64,000 bases of DNA from a virus. Positions 1,981 through 37,551 of the stretch are shown one piece after another (within the stretch, counting starts at the first letter, position 1; each line of letters starts with the position of its first letter). The notes below the pieces were generated by a model. That model made no database searches, had not been told where the DNA came from, and saw nothing but the letters and a program-made list of their open reading frames with translations. The position numbers and the translations under genes were made by a program. The stretch spans positions 2,531-66,530 of the IMG/VR virus record IMGVR_UViG_3300032282_002017; one strand, written 5' to 3'.

Positions 1981-3861
1981 ATGGCTACTGCTTCTTCTCG
2001 CAATTTTAGCGCATCACCACGAACTTTCGCCGCTGGTGGCGGAAATGGTTTTTCCGACGCTTTCGAGCGCGGCAACCAAGGCTACATGCACGCTGGCGAT
2101 TGGCGCAATACAGACCGAAATCCAAGCGATGATGGCTACCGAATTAACGCCCGCGCAGGCGCGTCTATGCCGGGAACGGGGCCGGGAACTGGTAATACCA
2201 GTATTCCAATGGGGCGCGGCTTTGGCGGTTTGAACTATTTTAACGCCTTGCAAAATCGCAATTTGCCAGCTTTTCGCCAACCAAATCAAGGAACGCCGTG
2301 GGGCATGGGCAATTCAGCACAAGAAGCTGGAGCAAACATGACTCAGGGCGGTAACTTGCTTCGCGCTGATGGGACTTACGTTCCCGACACGATGTATAAC
2401 CGCACACTTGGTTCCATGAATCCTTATGGCGGCAATCAGGCTCCACAGCAAGCCCCACAAGGCCCGAATGAGGATCAACAGCGTTGGGCGGAGAAGTTCG
2501 CTGGTAGTCAGGCTCCTTCTTCTTCGGGCGCAACACCGTTTGCAGACGCCTTGAAAAACGTGCGCTCACATCCATTGATAGCTGGCAAGGGCGGTCAGTC
2601 CGGTAATCAGCCTCTTAATTTCTCTCGTTCCGCGCTTATTCAAGGCGCTCAAAAATCAGGCGAGTTCGGTAAGATCATGGAGGATTATAACGCTAAGGCC
2701 AAGGCGGCTGGTACGGGTATGCAAATGGACGACAGGGGCAACATCAACCCACTTTCAAAACTAGATGACGGTTCCGGCACATCCCCATTTGCCCGTGCAA
2801 CCCTTGGCGCTGGCGCTGAAGATATTCGCGCTCGTCGTGATTTCAATCGTGGCGAGTCTTTGGATAAGTCGGTTTCCAATGGCGTTGGAACATTGACCAA
2901 GATAAACCCCTATGGTTCAGCCGGTGCAACTTATGGTGGCAAGCCTACGGGGCCGGGAATGATGCCTGACCCCCTAACAGGTAAGATGGTTCCAATGCGC
3001 CAATGGGCGGCAGATCAAAGCTCAGTTCAGGCGACGAAATACGCGCCATTCCCGGCCCAGTCATCCTCTCAAGTTGCGGGAAAAACAGTTATAACACCGA
3101 CGCGCTCTGCTGTTGCTCTGACCCCATCTTTAGGTGCCGTGTCGAATCCGTATGGCAGACCTCTTAACCCTAATTTCGTTCCTTCGGCTAGCGCTGGAAA
3201 CCTTGGCTCAGGTGTTGGTAATGGAAACGCCGGTTTAATGAGTGCTACCGGTAATGTGATGAACACTTGGGAAGGAATGCGCCAAGACGCAATGAAAGAT
3301 AAGCGAGGCCCGCTTGAAAGGATTGGCGCTCCCGTTAATTATCCAATGCCATCTGCCACTATGTCACCCGACGCTCAAAGTCGTTACCATCAGGTTATGA
3401 GTTCATTGCCAAACGCAACCCCATCTGTTGTTGGTGGCGAGAAACCATTAAATGCAGAAAGTGGACAAAGACTTAAAGATGCGGTGAGTGGGAAGGCTCC
3501 AATTCAGTTGAGCAAACCAGCAAGCCCAGCCGCTACGGCAAGCTCAAGCAATTTACAGAAAGCCAATCCATACAACGAGCCAAGAACTCAAAATAACACC
3601 AAGTTAGCGCCCTTCTTTACTAAAAAGCACCAAGGGGAAATTGATGAAGCTGATTCAAATCTTAAATACCATCAAGAAATAGTTGATAGGTTGCAAAGCC
3701 CAAGCGGGCAGGTTGGTGGATTAAAATTTGGAGATGTCGGTTATACTAGAGCGGCTGACAATAACATCAAACATAGTCTAAAAAGAATCGAAGAATATAA
3801 AAAAGCCAAAGCTGCCGCCGAGCAAAAACTAAAAGCCGTTTTGGCAAGAAAGGCTCAATAA
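1981..3861 (+). CDS. Low-complexity putative internal virion/ejection protein
   Basis: 626 aa, G/A/S/N/Q/P-rich, in the structural block upstream of the giant protein. Confidence 0.45.
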   Translation: MATASSRNFSASPRTFAAGGGNGFSDAFERGNQGYMHAGDWRNTDRNPSDDGYRINARAGASMPGTGPGTGNTSIPMGRGFGGLNYFNALQNRNLPAFRQPNQGTPWGMGNSAQEAGANMTQGGNLLRADGTYVPDTMYNRTLGSMNPYGGNQAPQQAPQGPNEDQQRWAEKFAGSQAPSSSGATPFADALKNVRSHPLIAGKGGQSGNQPLNFSRSALIQGAQKSGEFGKIMEDYNAKAKAAGTGMQMDDRGNINPLSKLDDGSGTSPFARATLGAGAEDIRARRDFNRGESLDKSVSNGVGTLTKINPYGSAGATYGGKPTGPGMMPDPLTGKMVPMRQWAADQSSVQATKYAPFPAQSSSQVAGKTVITPTRSAVALTPSLGAVSNPYGRPLNPNFVPSASAGNLGSGVGNGNAGLMSATGNVMNTWEGMRQDAMKDKRGPLERIGAPVNYPMPSATMSPDAQSRYHQVMSSLPNATPSVVGGEKPLNAESGQRLKDAVSGKAPIQLSKPASPAATASSSNLQKANPYNEPRTQNNTKLAPFFTKKHQGEIDEADSNLKYHQEIVDRLQSPSGQVGGLKFGDVGYTRAADNNIKHSLKRIEEYKKAKAAAEQKLKAVLARKAQ

Positions 3862-29986: not shown

Positions 29987-30133
29987 TTATTTCTTTTGCT
30001 TGTTCCTGCGTTCAGCGAAAAATACTGCGTCTTGTTTCGATAAACCGAAAACAATCGTCTTTCGCGTTTCGGCGTTGATGATTTCCCATGTAGGAGGGTT
30101 TTTCTCGTCTGCTTTGGCTATCCAAATTGTCAT
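29987..30133 (-). CDS. Small hypothetical protein (48 aa)
   Basis: ATG overlaps the ruvC-like stop; translated by hand as MTIWIAKADEKNPPTWEII... Confidence 0.4.
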   Translation of the reverse strand: MTIWIAKADEKNPPTWEIINAETRKTIVFGLSKQDAVFFAERRNKQKK

Positions 30134-30621
30134 AAGTTTTCTTTTGCATAAAATGCTACGAGCGCGGAATCAACGAGTCCATCGTGAGGAACACTACACC
30201 GCTTACTCGCCAACCAGCTTTCATCAGGCCATAGCTTTTGAGCTAAGCGTAACGCAGCAGGTTTGGTATCGCCAGCCTTGGCTTTGAGTAAGGGCTTCTG
30301 CCACTTTTGCGGCGTGATGCGCGTAAACCGAATCTTGTTGAGTTCAAACATGGCGCGTAGAGCGTGGAACGAAGCGGCCATTGAGACAGCCGCCTTGTAG
30401 CTTTTAGCGCCTCCCGGTTCTTCAACGACGGCATGCAGCTTGTCTAGGTTGTGATATTGAACAGTGTCGTGAATCCAGTTCCACGTGGCAACAACGTCAA
30501 CCTCGCGTCCTTTGCGAGACTTCTTTACCGGCATAATTGTCTTGGCGATGATTAACGAGCCTGAGATGACGCATAGGCCACCGCTTAACCCGTTATCCAC
30601 CCCCACTACAATCTCGCTCAT
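30130..30621 (-). CDS. RuvC-like Holliday junction resolvase
   Basis: VVGVDNGLSGG, VVEE, TPQKWQK and HDGLVDSAL give the RuvC acidic pattern. Confidence 0.85.
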   Translation of the reverse strand: MSEIVVGVDNGLSGGLCVISGSLIIAKTIMPVKKSRKGREVDVVATWNWIHDTVQYHNLDKLHAVVEEPGGAKSYKAAVSMAASFHALRAMFELNKIRFTRITPQKWQKPLLKAKAGDTKPAALRLAQKLWPDESWLASKRCSVPHDGLVDSALVAFYAKENL

Positions 30622-30633
30622 ACCAGTGGCAAT

Positions 30634-31074
30634 TCAGGACTCGATTCCCCGCGAAGGTGGGGGGGGCATCTCCGCTAGCGTACGATCTTCACTGGCAATC
30701 GTGAGCGGCTTGCGCGTTACAACGATCAAATTGTCCACCTTATAGACGAATACGCCAAGCCACTCAGCAACCTTCTTCATCTCATTAACAACGCCGCCTT
30801 CAAATCGTGAGCAACTTTGCTTCGGATTGAGCAACTCAAGCGAGTCCATGATGCCGATTCGGTCAATGTTTTCCAATGCTCGCAAGGCTTTCTTACGCTC
30901 GCTCCATTTGCAAAGAGGGATGCGCGAGAGTTGAGCGATGTTGGTTAGCGCCTCGGCGAGAATAGCAGCCTTTCGGCCATCTTTGACAAAGCCATGAAGT
31001 TGCGAAGCTGCGTTGAGCATTTCGCCAACCGTGCATTTACGTAACGCTGGAAATTTAGGTCGTTTGATTTTCAT
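30634..31074 (-). CDS. Hypothetical protein
   Basis: 146-aa ORF in operon-like packing. Confidence 0.5.
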   Translation of the reverse strand: MKIKRPKFPALRKCTVGEMLNAASQLHGFVKDGRKAAILAEALTNIAQLSRIPLCKWSERKKALRALENIDRIGIMDSLELLNPKQSCSRFEGGVVNEMKKVAEWLGVFVYKVDNLIVVTRKPLTIASEDRTLAEMPPPPSRGIES

Positions 31075-31241
31075 ACATTTGCCTCCAGTTCAGCGCAGCG
31101 GCCTTCAGACCATTGCAGCCAGTCGTTTTCGAGCTTGGTTACGTTGTCCTTTGAGATGATGAACTCGCGTTGGTTTTGAAACAGCGCTGCTTTAACGCGA
31201 TTGATTTCTTGTGGCGTTTCGGGGAAGTGTTCTTCGGTCAT
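31071..31241 (-). CDS. Small hypothetical protein (56 aa)
   Basis: AAAACGACT-ATG leader; stop overlaps the next start (ATGA). Confidence 0.5.
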   Translation of the reverse strand: MTEEHFPETPQEINRVKAALFQNQREFIISKDNVTKLENDWLQWSEGRCAELEANV

Positions 31242-31284
31242 AGTCGTTTTGTGCTGCCAATTACCGCTGGCAGCGGCGGGTTAA

Positions 31285-31764
31285 TTATTCGTATTTGCGA
31301 TTGAGGCGGTTTAGCTCAACATGGCGCTCGGCGTGGTGTTTGGTGCATAACCATTTAACATCAAGGGGCTTTGAGTAGTCGTCGTGATGAGCCTGAACGC
31401 GAAGCTCACCGCAGACTTCGCAAGGTTGTCGAATAAGTTTGCCAGATTGTATGGCATATTTAACGCAGCCGTTTGCATATTTTTTGTGTTTGTTTCGTTG
31501 ATACCACGCCTTTTTAGCCCTATCAGACGCTTCTTTATTTGGGAATCTTCCTTCAGCCCTGAATCTGGCGGACTTTTCTCTTTGCCTAGCCAATTCTTTT
31601 TCCATCCAAATTGGGTCTTTTCCTTTTTCGGCAAATCGGTTTTTTTCATCTTGTTTTGTGCAATCTTTACATTTTCCAAGATGCCCATCAGCCATCATCT
31701 TGTGTTTATAAAACTCATCAATTGGCTTGGTAATATTGCATTTGAAGCAGGTTTTTTGGTGCAT
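31285..31764 (-). CDS. HNH-type endonuclease with N-terminal Zn ribbon
   Basis: CFKC..EFY..CKDC; PCEVCG..AHHDDYSKPLDVKWLCTKHH. Confidence 0.8.
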   Translation of the reverse strand: MHQKTCFKCNITKPIDEFYKHKMMADGHLGKCKDCTKQDEKNRFAEKGKDPIWMEKELARQREKSARFRAEGRFPNKEASDRAKKAWYQRNKHKKYANGCVKYAIQSGKLIRQPCEVCGELRVQAHHDDYSKPLDVKWLCTKHHAERHVELNRLNRKYE

Positions 31765-31769
31765 TTTTT

Positions 31770-31798
31770 ATCCTAAACCTATCCAATAAACATGTCAA
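31770..31798 (-). promoter_or_regulatory. Sigma70 promoter, leaderless
   Basis: TTGACA-17-TAGGAT, then 5 nt to the ATG. Confidence 0.7.
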
Positions 31799-31806
31799 CC
31801 TTTTAA

Positions 31807-32193
31807 TCAAAAAGGTATCGAATCTTCCTCTAATCCATCTGCAATCGGCTTTTCTGGCAGCTTGTTTTTTTCAGTGGACTGCTTTTTGTAGCCACCTGAT
31901 CCGCCGCCGTCAAAGACAAACTCCTTCCCTGAGCCAATGAAGGGAGTGTACTTCTTTGCAGCCCGCTCTTCTTTTGTCATCTTCTCGCAAATCGAATGCG
32001 AATTTCCAAACTTATCCTCGCCATCGCGATTGGTTTTACAGTCGATTGACAAGTAACACTTGCCGTTTGCATGCGCGTTGATGCGGCTTTCTGGAATGCA
32101 GATTGCAACGTATTCTTTGCCGTCTTTGCCTGTGATGCGTTTCGCGCCTTGCAGCGCCAGTAGATCAAAACTGATGTTAATTGTGCTAGCCAT
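31807..32193 (-). CDS. Putative single-stranded DNA-binding protein
   Basis: Beta-rich core (GKDGKEY, DKFGN, FIGSGK) and an acidic C-terminal tail ending DSIPF; next to recE/recT. Confidence 0.65.
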   Translation of the reverse strand: MASTINISFDLLALQGAKRITGKDGKEYVAICIPESRINAHANGKCYLSIDCKTNRDGEDKFGNSHSICEKMTKEERAAKKYTPFIGSGKEFVFDGGGSGGYKKQSTEKNKLPEKPIADGLEEDSIPF

Positions 32194-32220
32194 AGAAGAA
32201 AGATTAGTTCAATTTTACGG

Positions 32221-33021
32221 TTAGATCAACCCATATTTGCGCTTTTCATAAAGAGGTACGTCGAGTTCAATGATGCCTCCACCGTGACCTTTCCATTTGC
32301 CACTAGCGGTACATTCCGCGTGTAGCTCTAGCGCCTTTTCCATCTGCTTTTGTCCAAGCTCAAGGCCATCGGCAGGCGGTTGGAAAATACACACATCAGC
32401 GGCTTCGGAATTTTCAACAGTAAGCCAGTAAAATGCTGGACGGTAATCCAGCCCATACTCAAGCGCTACAAGCGACTGGTACCAGCAACACTGCATGAAA
32501 TATTTGAAGCCACATGCGCTACGCGAGAACTCATGCGGATCACAAGAGGTTGTCGTTTTCAAATCCAAGATGCAGTATTTACCATCCTCATCTTTGAAAA
32601 TGCAGTCAATCTTGCCCTTGATGGTGGTGTCGCGATACTTTTGCACGATGCCTATTTCGCAATCAACAGCTTTGGACAACAGGTATTGAACATCGGCATT
32701 TGCAGCCACAGCATCAACCATGCGCTTGTATTGCGCGTACTCGTCTTGGGTAATGACAGTCTTGGAAGCGTTGGCGTCTTTGAACGCCTTTCCTTCTTTC
32801 GTGCGGCCATCCAGACCATCCGGCATCACGGCGTAGTTTTCTTCACGCCCCTCTAAGCATTTGGAATGCACCATCGTCCCCAAGAACATCGCTTTAGACG
32901 GCTCCTTTTTCGGTGACTTGAGCGCCGTTTGATAGTGAAGGGGTGATGTTAGGATACTTTTCAGCGACGAAAAGTTTAGTCCATTCGCAGCCCTGTACTC
33001 TATGTCGTTTTTGATTTTCAT
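32221..33021 (-). CDS. RecE-like PD-(D/E)XK exonuclease (ExoVIII/DUF3799-like)
   Basis: FSSLK..SPLHY, GTMVH..LE, KGKID, DLKTT, Y.MQ..WY. Confidence 0.88.
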   Translation of the reverse strand: MKIKNDIEYRAANGLNFSSLKSILTSPLHYQTALKSPKKEPSKAMFLGTMVHSKCLEGREENYAVMPDGLDGRTKEGKAFKDANASKTVITQDEYAQYKRMVDAVAANADVQYLLSKAVDCEIGIVQKYRDTTIKGKIDCIFKDEDGKYCILDLKTTTSCDPHEFSRSACGFKYFMQCCWYQSLVALEYGLDYRPAFYWLTVENSEAADVCIFQPPADGLELGQKQMEKALELHAECTASGKWKGHGGGIIELDVPLYEKRKYGLI

Positions 33022-33024
33022 AAA

Positions 33025-33077
33025 TTTTAACTGATCGTTGCAGCGAACCCTACGAGTCGCTGAACTAGGTGTTCGGC
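33025..33077 (+). mobile_element. Integron attC-like site 1 (53 bp)
   Basis: TTTTAAC-TGATC-GTTGCAGC-GAAC-CCTACGA-GTC-GCTGAAC-TAGGT-GTTCGGC gives R''-5-L''...L'-5-R' with two extrahelical bases. Confidence 0.75.
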
Positions 33078-33606
33078 GTCAAAGTCGTGGCCGGTAGATT
33101 ATCACGGCGACGGGAAACGGCGCGGAGGCGTCCGCACCTGCAAATTTCACGCGCCCCTTCGGAAATCGGACTTCGCCTTTCGCGGCGTAGTTGTGCCACC
33201 AGTTTGTATCCACGCGGGCAGGCACGAAGCACACGACGAGCGCACCGTTGTCCCGCGCTTCCTCGTAGGCTTTCTTCATCCACCGACCGAGATCGCGGCC
33301 ATACGGCGGATTCATAAACACACGCTCGTCTTGCCACGATTGCGCCAGCCCGTCCTCAGCGGGCGTGTAGTGCTTCGCGCACTTGGCGGTTTCGTGGTGG
33401 CAGCACGGATCGAGCGTGAATCCGAACTCCAGATCGAGGTAGTCGAACCATTGCTGCGGAGTCGCCCACGTCATGTCTTTCGAGGATGACATCACTTGGC
33501 GCGAGTGCGTTGACGCCGAACAAGGCGGTGGACTCAACAGAGTCCCGGCGGGAGTTGGTTCTGTATTCATAGATTATTGGCGGGACTCTGTGAGTCACCT
33601 ATTGCG
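33072..33606 (+). mobile_element. Integron-type gene cassette carrying the Dam methylase gene in inverted orientation
   Basis: Bounded by G|TTCGGC and G|TTAAGA. Cassette start is complementary to its own R'' (GCCGAAC). Local GC rises (37/60 in the hand-counted line at 33121). Confidence 0.72.
33079..33570 (-). CDS. Phage-type DNA N6-adenine methyltransferase (Dam family)
   Basis: WATPQ, FTLDPC, DGL, VFMNPPYG, PARVDT.WWH, GRVKF, APFP. Confidence 0.92.
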   Translation of the reverse strand: MNTEPTPAGTLLSPPPCSASTHSRQVMSSSKDMTWATPQQWFDYLDLEFGFTLDPCCHHETAKCAKHYTPAEDGLAQSWQDERVFMNPPYGRDLGRWMKKAYEEARDNGALVVCFVPARVDTNWWHNYAAKGEVRFPKGRVKFAGADASAPFPVAVIIYRPRL

Positions 33607-33612
33607 TTAAGA
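33515..33612 (+). mobile_element. Integron attC-like site 2 (98 bp)
   Basis: GCCGAAC-AAGGC-GGTGGACT-CAAC-AGAGTCCCG..loop..CGGGACTCT-GTG-AGTCACC-TATTGC-GTTAAGA. Confidence 0.8.
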
Positions 33613-34340
33613 CTGAACTGCCCCACTTCCTGACTCGGCAGCTTCAACGCAGCTTGCGGAACTGGCGTAATGTCGCGTTCAAGAACCACATCGCCATCCT
33701 TGTCGATATGCTCGGCAATCTCGCTAGAGAGTGGCAGTAGCTTGCAAAGACGACGAATGCTCGTTTTCTTTGCCATTTCGCCATAGTCAGTTGCCCAAGG
33801 GCCAGATGCGCCAGAACGACTACGTTTGCGAATAGCATCAACTTCGTCTTTGGTCATGGTGGCAGTCTGCGTCTCGCCTGATTTGAGCACGGCTTCAGCA
33901 TAAACGGCCTGAACATCGCCACGCGGTTTACGCCAATCAACCTTGTGCGTCACCTTGCCATTCTCCCATGAGAACTCGTCATTCTCACACACAAGCTCAG
34001 AGCGGATGCTAAGCACATCACCAGAACGTCGAACGAGTTCAATCAATCCAAGATAACTCAAAATCAAAGTGCATTCAGTGCCGTATGGAATCAGGTAAGC
34101 CCTACGCCCATCAGGCTCAAGGCCAGCGGCGGAAAGGTCAAGCAAGCATTTGAACAGGCTGGTCTGCGTGCAATCCTGCAACTTCGGCGTTCGCTGCAAA
34201 GCGGTAAGGGCGATGCGAGCAAAGCGATCTGGCGTCATGTGGCTAGGCAATGCCAGCGACAATTGCTGCTTAAACTGCTCCCCTCCAATTAGCTCTTTGA
34301 TACTCGCGGGTTTCTTGGCAATTTGTGTTTCTTCGCTCAT
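33567..34340 (-). CDS. recT: RecT-family single-strand annealing recombinase
   Basis: LALP.HMTPDRFARIALT, GLEPD..AYLIPY, SYLGLIELVRRSG, GPWATDYGEMAKKT..RRL.K.LP.S. Confidence 0.93.
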   Translation of the reverse strand: MSEETQIAKKPASIKELIGGEQFKQQLSLALPSHMTPDRFARIALTALQRTPKLQDCTQTSLFKCLLDLSAAGLEPDGRRAYLIPYGTECTLILSYLGLIELVRRSGDVLSIRSELVCENDEFSWENGKVTHKVDWRKPRGDVQAVYAEAVLKSGETQTATMTKDEVDAIRKRSRSGASGPWATDYGEMAKKTSIRRLCKLLPLSSEIAEHIDKDGDVVLERDITPVPQAALKLPSQEVGQFSLNAIGDSQSPANNL

Positions 34341-34435
34341 AATAGGCACCAATCCTCGCTCAATCTCTGTCTGATTGCAACCTTCAACTTTATGTTTCTC
34401 GTTGAAAGTGTCTCGATTTGAGTTTAGCCTTTCTT

Positions 34436-34645
34436 ATGGACGAGATACCAACACCGAGATGCGATGAACATGAATTACTCATGGAAAGCGAAGACTTTGA
34501 CGTAGAGCTTGCCAAAACAAAGACATTTGCAAAGCAAATTGAACGCGAGCTAACCATTGCTACAAAAACCATAGCAGACAGGGATGTGGCTATCGCGAAT
34601 CTTAACGCCATTCTTGACCAATGGGAGCAACAATGCGGCAAATGA
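34436..34645 (+). CDS. Hypothetical coiled-coil protein (TPxxD...FAKQIERE), opposite strand to its neighbours
   Basis: Own leaderless promoter TTGAAA-17-TAGCCT at 34402-34430. Confidence 0.6.
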   Translation: MDEIPTPRCDEHELLMESEDFDVELAKTKTFAKQIERELTIATKTIADRDVAIANLNAILDQWEQQCGK

Positions 34646-34821
34646 ACCACCACTACGCCCGCGATAAAGGCATTTTAGCCGCGCTTGACTACCTCGGTGT
34701 GGACTTTGGTATTCATCCAACGCTACGACGCGTAAAACAGCCAAAGAAAGCGGTTTGCAGGCCATCTACGGGACGCATCTTAGCGATATGGTGGATGATT
34801 TGTGTGAGTATTAAGCCTTAA
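34642..34821 (+). CDS. Small hypothetical protein
   Basis: ATGA-coupled to the 34436 ORF. Confidence 0.35.
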   Translation: MNHHYARDKGILAALDYLGVDFGIHPTLRRVKQPKKAVCRPSTGRILAIWWMICVSIKP

Positions 34822-35003
34822 AGCTCAACCCCTTCTTCCAAGCTCCTGCATTCATCGCAGAAACCATCGCCAATCTCTCGGTCAATTTCAATATCTTCAT
34901 CGGACATTTCACGTTCGCACTTGGCGCAATGTCGGGTTGACCAATAAGCGTCGTATTGAGCTTCGGTGTGAGAGCAGAGCGAGCTATCAAGTTGTTGTGG
35001 CAT
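34818..35003 (-). CDS. Small Zn-finger protein
   Basis: CAKC..CDEC. Confidence 0.5.
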   Translation of the reverse strand: MPQQLDSSLCSHTEAQYDAYWSTRHCAKCEREMSDEDIEIDREIGDGFCDECRSLEEGVEL

Positions 35004-35203
35004 TAAGCAAAAGTTGATTGTTTCCAGTTCGTAAGCCAGTCGGCGCTGCGCATGCAGGCGTCCAAAGCATCGTCCACATGAGCCATAAAACGCTCGGTAT
35101 TTTCCAGCTTGCTGTACTCAACTGCAAAATACAGCGATTCACCGATTGCACCGCTCCAGAACGAGTGAGCCAGTAAGCATGAGGTTGTCCAGAGTGGTTT
35201 CAT
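35003..35203 (-). CDS. Small hypothetical protein
   Basis: Tight packing; ATG at 35203. Confidence 0.4.
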   Translation of the reverse strand: MKPLWTTSCLLAHSFWSGAIGESLYFAVEYSKLENTERFMAHVDDALDACMRSADWLTNWKQSTFA

Positions 35204-35204
35204 A

Positions 35205-35399
35205 CTAATAGCGGCGCAATTCACCGAGTTTCTGAAGCAACAGCAACGCTTGATCCCCGTTAGGAGTCGTCGCACCGCTAAACCACCGCATGAACTGCTT
35301 CGTGGTTACTTCGTGTTTCGCGGCAAATTGATTGATTGTGCCGTACGCATGTGGCGTCGGGTAATGTTTTTTTAGCAGTTCGCTTATGGTTAGTTTCAT
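35205..35399 (-). CDS. Cro-like HTH protein
   Basis: INQFAAKHEVTTKQFMRWFSGATTP. Confidence 0.6.
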   Translation of the reverse strand: MKLTISELLKKHYPTPHAYGTINQFAAKHEVTTKQFMRWFSGATTPNGDQALLLLQKLGELRRY

Positions 35400-35638
35400 T
35401 GGTTTTGATTTAATCTGTTGCGGTGAAATTGCCAAAAGTCCGACAAGTCTCCATTTTTGATCTTTCGTGTGCTGTGCATCTCATCACCTGTTTTGTTTAG
35501 GAAAATGTCTGGATCGTTAAATAGACCAACGCTTTCGCGAACATCGTCTGCAACAGGGTGGTTTCCAAGTTTTGTGATTCCAGTTCCGCCATTAGTCCAG
35601 TGGTCGGGCCATGTGCATCGGTGCGTCGTTTTGCTCAT
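35396..35638 (-). CDS. Hypothetical protein
   Basis: Stop overlaps the next start; start position uncertain. Confidence 0.4.
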   Translation of the reverse strand: MSKTTHRCTWPDHWTNGGTGITKLGNHPVADDVRESVGLFNDPDIFLNKTGDEMHSTRKIKNGDLSDFWQFHRNRLNQNQ

Positions 35639-35678
35639 GTCTAAACCTATCCCACATTTGGGAAGTTGTAAAGGTGGT

Positions 35679-35999
35679 TTATTCTTCGTCAATCTGCTGT
35701 TTCAAATCTGCAATCGCTTCTTCTTCGGTTTCACCCCAGCCTTTTAAGCCGTCCTCATAGCCGTATTGATAGGCAAGCCAATCTAGGGTGCGCACTGGCA
35801 TTGGCGGAAATACGTGTTGAGTAATGATTTTCCCGTACTTCTCAAACTGTTCTTGGGCTTCACGCTCTTCGGCGCTGTGCGGCTCATCGTAAGTATTCGG
35901 AAAGCAATTCGCGCAATCCACAGCACCGCACATACGGTCTTTGCATCGGTAAGCGCGGCGTTTCTTTTCGGGGTAGCTTTCGTCGTCGAGGTCTTTCAT
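35679..35999 (-). CDS. Hypothetical protein (CxxxxCGAxDCxxC)
   Basis: Cys cluster and GWGETEEEAIADL C-terminus. Confidence 0.55.
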   Translation of the reverse strand: MKDLDDESYPEKKRRAYRCKDRMCGAVDCANCFPNTYDEPHSAEEREAQEQFEKYGKIITQHVFPPMPVRTLDWLAYQYGYEDGLKGWGETEEEAIADLKQQIDEE

Positions 36000-36358
36000 G
36001 GCTTATTCTCCCAAAGGTTGAGGGCGCAAAGAAATGCTTTAGCCCGTTGACTGGCATCAGCTACAAATGCGTAGGAACGGGCATCAAAGCCTCGCGCCTC
36101 TGTTGTGATGTTCGCCAGCTTATTTGCATAAGAAACAAGAAGCTCGGCAAGGTCTAGCTTCTTCTCAGCTTCGTGCATTGCATTCAAATCATTCAAATAA
36201 TCCGGCAAAGGATCGAGAGGAATGTCCTCAATGTTGCCAAGAATGCGTTGCTCGTAAGGCACAGGCCGCGATGGAGCGTAGCCAACAAGGAACTGTTCAG
36301 AGATTCCACGCCAACCGCATGCTTTAGCGATGGCTATTCGTATTTTCTCTTTAGTCAT
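35996..36358 (-). CDS. Hypothetical phage protein
   Basis: IAIAKACGW..PDYLNDLNAMHEAE..A.QRA.AFL; AAACGA leader. Confidence 0.65.
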   Translation of the reverse strand: MTKEKIRIAIAKACGWRGISEQFLVGYAPSRPVPYEQRILGNIEDIPLDPLPDYLNDLNAMHEAEKKLDLAELLVSYANKLANITTEARGFDARSYAFVADASQRAKAFLCALNLWENKP

Positions 36359-36365
36359 AAGTCGT

Positions 36366-37079
36366 TTATTCGTTTCCCAACATTAGTTCAGCTTTGGGTG
36401 GTTGTAAAGAGGTTTGGTTTGCTGCCGCCTCAATTCTTTGCTGGCAGATGGCGAAATACTTCTCGTCTCGCTCAATGCCGATGAATTTGCGATTGGTATT
36501 CATGCAAGCCACGCCGGTTGTGCCGCTGCCCATACAGCAATCGAGGATGGTATCTCCTATTTTCGAGCTTGCCAGTATAAGCCTCTCCATAAGCTTTACC
36601 GGCTTTTCTGTCGGGTGGATTTTTGACCTGCCGGATGGGTTGCTCCACAAAGCTTTTTTACACCTCTCATTGAAAATTGCCTTGGGCTTTCTGGCGAATA
36701 CGCAAAACTCCATGCCTGACAGCCATAGCTTGGTGCCGTTCATTGGTGATGGATTCGTTTTGTCCCACGCGCCCACTCTGGTTGACATCTTTAGATTTTT
36801 AAACTCAGTCACAAGTTGGCTTATCTGTTGTGTTCCGCAGAAGACATAAAAACTACCGTGGCAAATTCTATGAAATTCGCCAACAAGTAGCCGCAGGTCT
36901 ATATCGCACCTATCCGCCTTCCCTCTATCCAACAATCGAAGTCCAGAGCTTTTCTGCGAAACCTCATCGTATGGTATGTCTGTTAGCACCATATCCACGC
37001 TGCCAGTTTCGATTTCCTGCATGTGTTCAAGGCATTCGCCAAGCATGAGGGTGTATTTGTCGGTTTTGATGTTGTTCAT
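36366..37079 (-). CDS. DNA methyltransferase, N6/N4 beta class
   Basis: [50 protein letters not shown]. Confidence 0.92.
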
Positions 37080-37122: not shown

Positions 37123-37551
37123 TTAGTCTGTTTCAGTATTCATTTCCGGTGGTGATGGGCATTTCCATGCTGCCCTTGATCTTGCCAAAAATACCTTAAC
37201 CTGTTGTGGCAGTTTGTTATGATGACTATTTACCTTTTCACGCGATTTAGAATTGCCGCGCTTTGTGTTATGGCTTTTGCAATAAAGAAGAAAATGAAGG
37301 ATGCAGTGTCGAATTTGCGAAACAGTAAACTTTGGCATTCGCTTCCACATTTCGTGTACTTGACCGTGACAGTTGTCGCACAAAACCATCAAGTCAGACA
37401 TCTTTTCACGGCCAATGCGCTTATAAGTGAGGTGATGAATTTGCAGGCGGCTGGCATTTAAGCAACCTTCGCATTTGTGAGAGGATTGCCTTAACTTGAT
37501 TTGACGAATGGCTTTCCATTCAGGAGAGAGTAGGTATGCGGTGTAGTTCAT
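37123..37551 (-). CDS. HNH endonuclease
   Basis: [35 protein letters not shown]. Confidence 0.88.

Follow-up and report, generated by a model that had tools for sequence, protein, structure and literature searches.

How might a gene that enters a phage operon as a recombination cassette find a start for its translation there? We address this question with a 64,000-nucleotide stretch of viral DNA (the window), positions 2,531 to 66,530 of IMG/VR record IMGVR_UViG_3300032282_002017. The source record is 66,530 bp long, has direct terminal repeats and is described as a complete phage record. Between recT and the gene for its exonuclease partner, the window holds a methylase gene whose first codon lies in the loop of a hairpin with the anatomy of an integron attC site. 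We consider it probable that this gene and this hairpin form an integron-type cassette carried by a phage, that an attC site of reverse polarity serves as the translational joint between recT and the methylase gene, and that a whole family of attC sites is built alike. This reading draws on what can be observed in the DNA, namely the anatomy of the site, its conservation, covariation and polarity, the statistics of the reading frames that cross it, and the complementarity of the cassette ends.

The hairpin, which we call attC_A, spans 33515..33612 and was recognized from its folds, a hairpin detector, a covariance model (R1) and an alignment of the family described below. Its bottom strand is the minus strand, which also bears recT, the methylase gene and the exonuclease gene. 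Along this strand, an R' box (33612-33606, TCTTAAC) and a 6-nt 5' spacer (33605-33600) lead into a 5' arm without bulged bases (33599-33581). A 33-nt loop (33580-33548) that holds the sequence ATGA is followed by a 3' arm (33547-33527), a 5-nt 3' spacer (33526-33522) and an R'' box (33521-33515, GTTCGGC). The two arms make an imperfect hairpin of 19 pairs in which the 3' arm has two unpaired bases, a T near 33537 and a C near 33530. As is typical of attC sites, AAC in the 5' box and GTT in the 3' box are both present on the minus strand, and the bulges lie 7 nt apart on the arm opposite AAC and are accompanied by unpaired spacers. The bulge pair is laid out like G16 and T23 of attCaadA7, whose bottom strand has AAC in the 5' box and these two extrahelical bases on the opposite arm in the part of the study available to us (Nivina 2016, PMC5027507). 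As DNA, the hairpin folds at -21.4 kcal/mol on the plus strand (z -3.26; 0/200 shuffles as good) and at -17.9 on the minus strand (z -2.72; 3/200), and the mRNA strand folds as RNA at -33.5 (z -4.55; 0/200). A strong stem at a gene junction could also be a chance palindrome or an intrinsic terminator. We regard this as extremely improbable, since the stem has no T-run and drew no terminator-like call on the minus strand, compensatory changes are found in 24 distinct copies, and a model of sites linked to integron integrase (IntI) genes matches it. The geometry of boxes, spacers and bulges, the complementarity of the cassette ends and the covariance model agree, and together they support the prediction that 33515-33612 is a real attC-type site.

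The predicted cassette, attC_A plus the methylase gene, occupies 33072..33606 on the minus strand and is bounded by two AA|C crossover points (G|TT on the plus strand); in the window the junction G|TT falls at 33606|33607. A perfect 12-bp inverted repeat links 33071-33082 with 33510-33521. The far end of the cassette thus complements its own R'', and a circular form of the cassette would restore an R box. The G+C content is 56-63% across 33050-33600 and roughly 39-55% in the flanks, and an R-box repeat inverted at the far end of a G+C-rich segment has the look of a linearised integron cassette. Among loci with related methylases, the terminal 8-mer after the stop complements the N-terminal GTT-box in 11 of the 17 closest, including the window, and in only 5 of 30 distant ones. 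Removal of 33072-33606 in silico leaves recT ending CTT AAC ACC TAG, as the initial annotation of this locus had stated. This TAG that would close recT without the cassette lies in a possible second, very short attC-like site on the minus strand (attC_B, 33024..33077), which abuts the 3' end of the cassette and stops 3 nt before the exonuclease ATG. The evidence for attC_B is an R1 match at 33029-33073 and its flush position; its fold alone is not significant (z -0.37). If attC_B is real, the methylase cassette came in by attC x attC recombination and the phage carries a two-site cluster.

Both arms of attC_A are also coding sequence. The recT gene (34352..33567, minus strand) matches PF03837 with 156.1 bits, and this match, together with synteny with an exonuclease gene, identifies its predicted product as a RecT single-strand annealing protein. 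The next gene (33570..33079, minus strand) encodes 163 residues that match PF05869 with 92.6 bits (cut-off 28.1) from residue 28 onward; an NPPY motif is invariant in our methylase alignment (A1), and the protein is predicted to act as a Dam-type phage N6-adenine DNA methyltransferase. The recT tail LNAIGDSQSPANNL is encoded by the 5' box, the spacer, the 5' arm and the start of the loop. The recT stop (TGA, 33569-33567) overlaps the methylase ATG (33570-33568) as ATGA within the loop, and the methylase leader MNTEPTPAGTLLSPPPCSA is encoded by the loop, the 3' arm, the spacer and the 3' box. About 19 residues at the start of the methylase therefore come from the loop, 3' arm, spacer and R'' of the attC site. 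The overlap and the division of the two arms between the RecT tail and the methylase N-terminus had been noted in the initial annotation and can be read directly from the DNA. The cassette supplies the last 12 codons of recT (AIGDSQSPANNL) and its stop, and the whole tail is 18 residues longer than in relatives.

Comparison of RecT C-termini, which the same annotation had pointed to, agrees with a tail brought by the cassette. In 32 viral loci with related RecT proteins (45-92% identity), the tail and the methylase are absent throughout, and the proteins end 3-5 residues past QEV. The recT stop overlaps the ATG of the next gene as ATGA in 26 of the 32 (2 loci run off the contig), which suggests that the ancestral junction was already a coupled ATGA. 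That next gene encodes the exonuclease in 24 of the 32, and the exonuclease gene is by this synteny the presumed ancestral downstream partner of recT. In the window, the exonuclease gene lacks this overlap with recT; its ATG is 57 nt past the methylase stop, and no Shine-Dalgarno-like motif lies between them (33019-33081).

On the minus strand from 32900 to 34500 we found no promoter-like and no terminator-like site, and none of 24 aligned members of the hairpin family has GGAG, GAGG or AGGA within 17 nt 5' of the ATG. Therefore the methylase gene is most likely co-transcribed with recT and translated by termination-reinitiation, and its translation would depend on ribosomes that have read recT. 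One alternative is that the overlap is incidental, with translation starting independently at Met27 (MSSSKDMTW) and the first 26 codons being untranslated attC. The start of the Pfam match at residue 28 fits this alternative, as do two homologues outside cassettes (L043 and L044), which start 3 codons before the equivalent Met, and the leader is not conserved as a peptide. However, there is no Shine-Dalgarno-like motif ahead of Met27 either, and two of the 71 viral loci with related methylases are hard to accommodate. These loci, L047 and L048, have the hairpin and the start in common with the window, their stems differing by compensatory changes, and their methylase cores are 55-56% identical to that of the window in A1, compared to 72-83% for L033-L044. 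Between its loop ATG and the conserved core, L047 lacks any further start codon in frame (ATG, GTG or TTG), and L048 offers only weak GTG and TTG candidates. In addition, all 47 complete family open reading frames (ORFs) open from the loop ATG. We therefore think it unlikely that the overlap is incidental. The proposed start in the loop stands for L047 and is upheld by the family ORFs; in the window itself, Met27 is possible as a second start of the methylase.

To place attC_A beside sites of known context, we turned to the 61 genomes of a single bacterial order, 28 of which have IntI genes (TIGR02249 scores above the cut-off). DNA from the attI side was taken for 15 of these genes and for one found earlier, which gave 16 regions in which a custom detector found 55 hairpins on the expected bottom strand (the intI-sense strand). 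Bulges were more numerous on the 3' arm in 45 of these, more numerous on the 5' arm in 5 and equal in 5, and the layout of boxes, spacers and bulges in attC_A is the same as in these sites. The detector alone is too loose, with 1-4 matches per shuffled window, and was therefore used only with IntI context or with a model. Covariance model R1 was built from 18 non-redundant IntI-linked sites. With filters off, its top match in 30000-37000 of the window was 33515-33612 on the minus strand, at full model length but with a weak score (14.1 bits, E 0.025), followed by 33029-33073 on the same strand (12.6 bits, E 0.063) and then by a match of 7.6 bits; E-values from R1 are rough. The homologous hairpin of L048 (2959-3056) scored 32.2 bits (E 1e-5). 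Of 50 metagenome family loci scanned, 11 had matches (18.6-25.3 bits), always on the coding strand, and 35 viral and genome loci gave 50 matches at E < 1, 49 of them on the methylase strand. Matches overlap the methylase gene in L033, L041, L042, L035, L109, L045, L121 and L122, and there were none in the 32 recT-relative loci. On the other side of the ledger, R1 was trained on sites picked by our own detector, restricted to those in which bulges are more numerous on the 3' arm. A search of the entire window under default filters listed only 33029-33073 on the minus strand (E 0.57), leaving attC_A out. Because the scores are weak, the E-values rough and the training sites our own, comparative evidence carries more weight in what follows.

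The reference sites also define the usual polarity of a cassette: of 32 IntI-linked cassettes, 30 have their longest ORF on the top strand, opposite the bottom strand of the site. The methylase gene is instead on the bottom strand, the strand with the 3'-arm bulges, which bears out the claim that it runs against the usual orientation. The locus does not have the canonical arrangement of a promoterless top-strand gene followed by its attC. It could be argued that the polarity is reversed: the cassettes would be ordinary ones, attC_A would belong to the gene upstream, the methylase would have 33024-33077 as its own site and would merely begin within its neighbor's attC. In arrays, a body is flanked by GTTCNNN and its complement either way. 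The two polarities are thus symmetrical, and the choice between them rests on structure (bulges, spacers and the strand matched by the model), on the onset of conservation at the upstream AAC, and on one case of linkage. A site does follow the methylase gene, and another hairpin follows 14 of 34 family cassettes by the detector, and more by eye, as ordinary cassettes would have it. Since arrays are common, a test based on the absence of a downstream hairpin is uninformative on polarity. Contigs from three studies in which the same methylase body stands behind a different hairpin, with the break at 33527, also fit ordinary cassettes. Against this, the structural features mark the bottom strand in IntI-linked arrays and in the sites described in the available part of Nivina 2016 (PMC5027507), and R1 matches only the minus or ORF strand in the window, in L048 and in the 11 family loci. 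The linkage case concerns L048, L250 and L285, which resemble one another from the AAC ahead of the hairpin onward, as far as the methylase gene; the hairpins are 99-100% and the downstream methylases 91-100% identical, and the upstream DNA is unrelated. The converse, an upstream body and hairpin shared with a different downstream body, was found in none of 86 pairs compared. We accordingly give ordinary polarity little credence and retain the reading in which attC_A belongs to the methylase cassette.

The family to which attC_A belongs was collected by sequence pattern. A search of viral contigs with a strict 3'-arm pattern retrieved those of L047 and L048 alone, and a pattern scan of metagenomes gave 76 loci, 50 of which belong to the hairpin family; the other 26 represent a conserved gene unrelated to it and were discarded. 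Adding L047, L048 and the window brings the family to 53 sites in 42 upstream contexts. When 24 distinct 98-nt copies are aligned, AAC is the point at which conservation sets in, and the four bases ahead of it show free variation. Eight pairs of the stem have changed on both sides, and the covariation of the stem (0.217) exceeds that of shuffled alignments (0.102; 0/500 as high) and that of every slid control. One arm type is out of register in this alignment, which lowers the paired percentage. In 13 of the 53 sites (L241, L246/L303, L252/L274, L312, L288 and L245), the 5' arm is deleted, replaced or mismatched and the loop ATG, leader and ORF are kept, which looks like decay of the hairpin after fixation. 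L247 has a tandem duplication in the loop at about 3500-3551, so that the ATG-bearing stretch occurs twice. Other types of attC follow family cassettes in L244, L250, L255, L256, L262 and L295 with the same bulge and spacer geometry, and those in L250, L255, L256 and L262 have ATGA in the loop or 5' arm.

The loop ATG opens a substantial frame throughout the family. All 47 complete ORFs reach at least 61 aa (median 110, maximum 310), compared to 28.9% of 6149 control ATGs on the same strands, and a start within an attC loop is thus not peculiar to the window, contrary to the suggestion that no other phage gene might begin in this way. Past the leader, the family proteins are unrelated to each other. 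Pfam domains were found in 12 of 35 non-redundant products: six Dam-type methylases, three of Methyltransf_11/25, and one each of N6_N4_Mtase, Lar (a restriction-alleviation protein) and DUF551. The enrichment of this cargo in DNA methyltransferases, together with the Lar cassette, suggests that its likely role in phages is escape from host restriction. A one-base difference in the loop shifts the frame of the arm in several cassettes (for example, MNTPKDSTGGCCPPPPCSA compared to MNTPKTQREAVDLHRLVR). The leader is thus read in at least two frames across cassettes, which indicates that the DNA structure is conserved rather than the peptide.

The ends of the family cassettes and the frames that run across them follow the same logic. 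A 7-mer complementary to the cassette's own R'' lies near the end of the ORF in 37 of 40 cassettes (at most one mismatch; 31 exact), and 9 of 13 non-standard R'' variants have an exactly covarying partner at the far end. In 33 of the 37 cassettes with such a 7-mer, the ORF passes through the crossover triplet AAC in phase and translates it as Asn, which mostly follows a Pro. Only two of the 37, the window methylase and L306, have a stop of their own ahead of the cassette boundary; the other 35 terminate past it. In most copies, AAC and the TGA of the loop are 36 nt apart, which means that any ORF in which AAC forms a codon will terminate at ATGA. Consistent with this, when the 42 contexts are sorted by the upstream frame that stays open for 50 codons or more, 26 fall to the ATGA frame, 1 to the ATG frame and 5 to the third; no such frame is present in 7, and 3 offer too little sequence to judge. 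The chance of at least 26 of 32 at one third is P = 3.5e-8, which strengthens the proposal that the attC carries its own stop/start junction. Arrays in L292, L241, L270, L268 and L045 have ORFs that begin at the ATGA of one site and end at that of the following one. Across the family, chaining to the next gene is common but not a rule, and the effect is modest.

Could the hairpin family instead be a conserved linker that is shuffled by phage recombination (for example, annealing by RecT) and kept for translation, with no role as an integrase substrate? Several observations are compatible with this alternative. Hairpins are 91-99% identical between unrelated cassettes, enough for homologous exchange; IntI (TIGR02249) was found neither in the 66.5-kb record nor in five related viral records, six in all; and a search of 401 bacterial genomes, from the class to which one IntI-bearing assembly belongs, did not find the family pattern. 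The hairpin swap at 33527 and mosaic methylase bodies also fit it. Contigs from three other DNA studies (X2, X3 and X4) resemble the window from 33057, 33071 and 33070, respectively, to 33524-33527. The left break of X3 (33071) and X4 (33070) coincides with the predicted crossover, and the right break falls at 33527, at the base of the stem, where a methylase body 90-99% identical to ours is joined to a different hairpin. A crossover at R' alone does not explain this joint, which could reflect exchange in the conserved spacer and box, recombination of the other strand or independent capture. However, exchange within the repeat would not keep R'' complementary to the far end of each cassette, by exact match in 31 of 40 and by covariation in 9, and would not give a sharp onset of conservation at AAC. 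IntI is present, on other contigs, in 3 of 5 bacterial assemblies that hold such methylase cassettes, and IntI1 has recombined phage attC sites experimentally, according to the available part of Qi et al. 2023 (PMC9892861). We therefore doubt that phage recombination of a linker accounts for the family. Under the cassette reading, the element would have been moved by a host integron integrase.

A number of results sit poorly with this cassette reading and count against it. No integrase gene is present in the six viral records just mentioned, and the locus is not a complete integron with intI and attI beside an array. The R' (TCTTAAC) and R'' (GTTCGGC) boxes are each one position off RYYYAAC and GTTRRRY; for R', a hybrid box is what an insertion junction should give. 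When the 34 nt that follow the cassette were sought as an exact match in viral contigs, no relative with an empty site turned up, and the 33527 mosaics break within the site rather than at its crossover. The metagenome search pattern contains ATGAATAC, so the presence of ATG or ATGA in the loop, including ATG in 24/24 aligned sites, is by construction. Six of the 32 informative contexts have their long upstream frame in a frame other than that of ATGA, in addition to the 7 without one, and the ORF ahead of the L047 methylase ends 18 nt short of the ATG. Family ORFs stop at ATGA in 14 of 40 cases, compared to a background of 22.9%. The longest-ORF test in G+C-rich phage and metagenome arrays is ambiguous (19 top, 22 bottom), and we therefore do not claim that all phage arrays are inverted. 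RNA contigs (X15) match 33075-33387 only and may derive from relatives or from DNA. In the parts of 33057-33597 covered by runs X2-X4 and X15, no joint across the cassette was found.

With these points weighed, we propose the following for the cassette at 33072-33606, between recT and the gene for its exonuclease partner. A ribosome translating recT would read through the R' box, the spacer and the 5' arm and stop at the TGA in the loop, where it overlaps the ATG. In doing so it would open the 19-bp stem, which otherwise encloses the start region. Reinitiation at AUGA after termination of recT, on the shared transcript, would then carry translation of the methylase through the loop, the 3' arm, the spacer and the R'' box. 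The cassettes of the family could be regarded as open-ended coding modules, each with a start and a leader of about 19 codons in its own attC, a crossover triplet read as Asn, and a stop usually found in whatever follows the cassette.

Coupling of genes across a recombination site has precedents. In class 1 integrons, attC stems hinder ribosomes, ORF-11 lies in attI1 and short ORFs lie inside attC, and termination-reinitiation at the recombination site rescues cassettes without an initiation region of their own (review, PMC8876359, from the part available). There, coupling works from the top strand and relies on an additional short ORF; in the window, the two neighboring genes overlap directly in the bottom-strand loop, and the site supplies real N- and C-terminal residues (compared to the account in PMC8876359). 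The attC sites and cassettes of integrons (attCaadA7 and VCR; Nivina et al. 2016, PMC5027507) have the same folded hairpin, with R and L boxes, AAC and GTT, spacers, extrahelical bases and a variable loop, and the first bases of the cassette likewise complement its own R''. Compared to the sites described in the part of that paper at hand, the gene is here on the bottom strand with its start in the loop, both arms and the boxes are translated, most family members lack a stop of their own, and there is no integrase or attI nearby (Nivina et al. 2016, PMC5027507). Phage genomes are known to carry attC clusters and methyltransferase cassettes without an integron integrase, as here, and an anti-restriction role has been proposed for them (Qi et al. 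2023, PMC9892861). In its available text, there is no description of coupling, of reverse polarity or of genes that begin within an attC; orientations may be given in its supplementary tables. Loot et al. (bioRxiv 10.1101/2022.09.11.507474) describe, in the portion available, isolated cassettes (SALIN) that have entered genomes at attG sites with a G|WT triplet. The window resembles them in what may be a single cassette outside an integron, in the triplet (here G|TT) and in an expression that would depend on context. They differ in that the target here may be the attC-like 33024-33077 (attC x attC) and in that the host is a phage.

Reverse-oriented cassettes exist in chromosomal integrons, for example those of toxin-antitoxin systems, in which the antisense gene has its own promoters and starts. 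The present family differs from them, having no promoter-like site or ribosome-binding motif and a borrowed stop. In the literature searched, which did not extend to the supplements of Qi 2023 and Loot, we found no family of bottom-strand cassettes with a start in the loop, translated arms, an in-phase crossover and a stop supplied by the neighbor. Phage attC sites and methylase cassettes are already known; what that literature did not show us is an attC of reverse polarity that is translated and would couple two genes. The locus holds a real attC-type cassette in a phage and is an architectural variant of a known system.

The surroundings of the cassette and of its relatives offer further observations. 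Downstream, the exonuclease gene (33021..32221, minus strand) encodes a PD-(D/E)XK, RecE-like enzyme (DUF3799, 97.3 bits; PDDEXK_1), and all genes around the hairpin are on the minus strand. A blastn search with 32900-33900 found no match among GenBank phages. The same phage carries a second DNA methylase gene at 36366-37079 on the minus strand (N6_N4_Mtase, PF01555), and two minus-strand ORFs (31285-31764 and 37123-37551) appear HNH-like by eye only. Clusters of R1 matches on one strand within about 6 kb were seen in four viral loci, with 16 matches in L041 (376-6040), 8 in L042 (1790-5053), 8 in L033 (279-3506) and 6 in L045 (2670-4578), each more than the two-attC minimum stated in the available part of Qi et al. 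2023 (PMC9892861). Two of these four records have terminal repeats. A search for IntI in four viral records, L045's not among them, found none. The methylase gene of L035 (2989-3510) is interrupted in frame, a stop taking the place of a Trp that does not vary in the alignment (AQS*QDERVF). A methylase homologue in L040 (about 2900-3460) has no attC signature. It lies between copies of a direct repeat of about 17 nt, a duplication of the beginning of the gene that follows, which represents a different mode of insertion.

How cassettes far from the integron promoter are expressed, and how a gene and an attC site become joined, are long-standing questions to which this locus speaks. One DNA element here meets three constraints at once: a structure for recombination, the C-terminal codons of one gene, and the start and N-terminus of the next. 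Compensatory changes keep the stem while rewriting both peptides. Coupling of this kind, if real, accounts for the ability of a gene without a promoter or a ribosome-binding site to work at once in a phage operon. We lean, by no wide measure, toward the broader view that a lineage of cassettes was turned round for life in phage operons, with attC as a portable joint through which in-frame insertions, or strings of such cassettes, would assemble a coupled operon by themselves, without promoter or ribosome-binding site, as a swappable toolkit against restriction. The finding points to integron-type exchange as a route by which phages may trade methylases and other anti-restriction genes, and it thereby bears on the arms race between phages and bacterial restriction.

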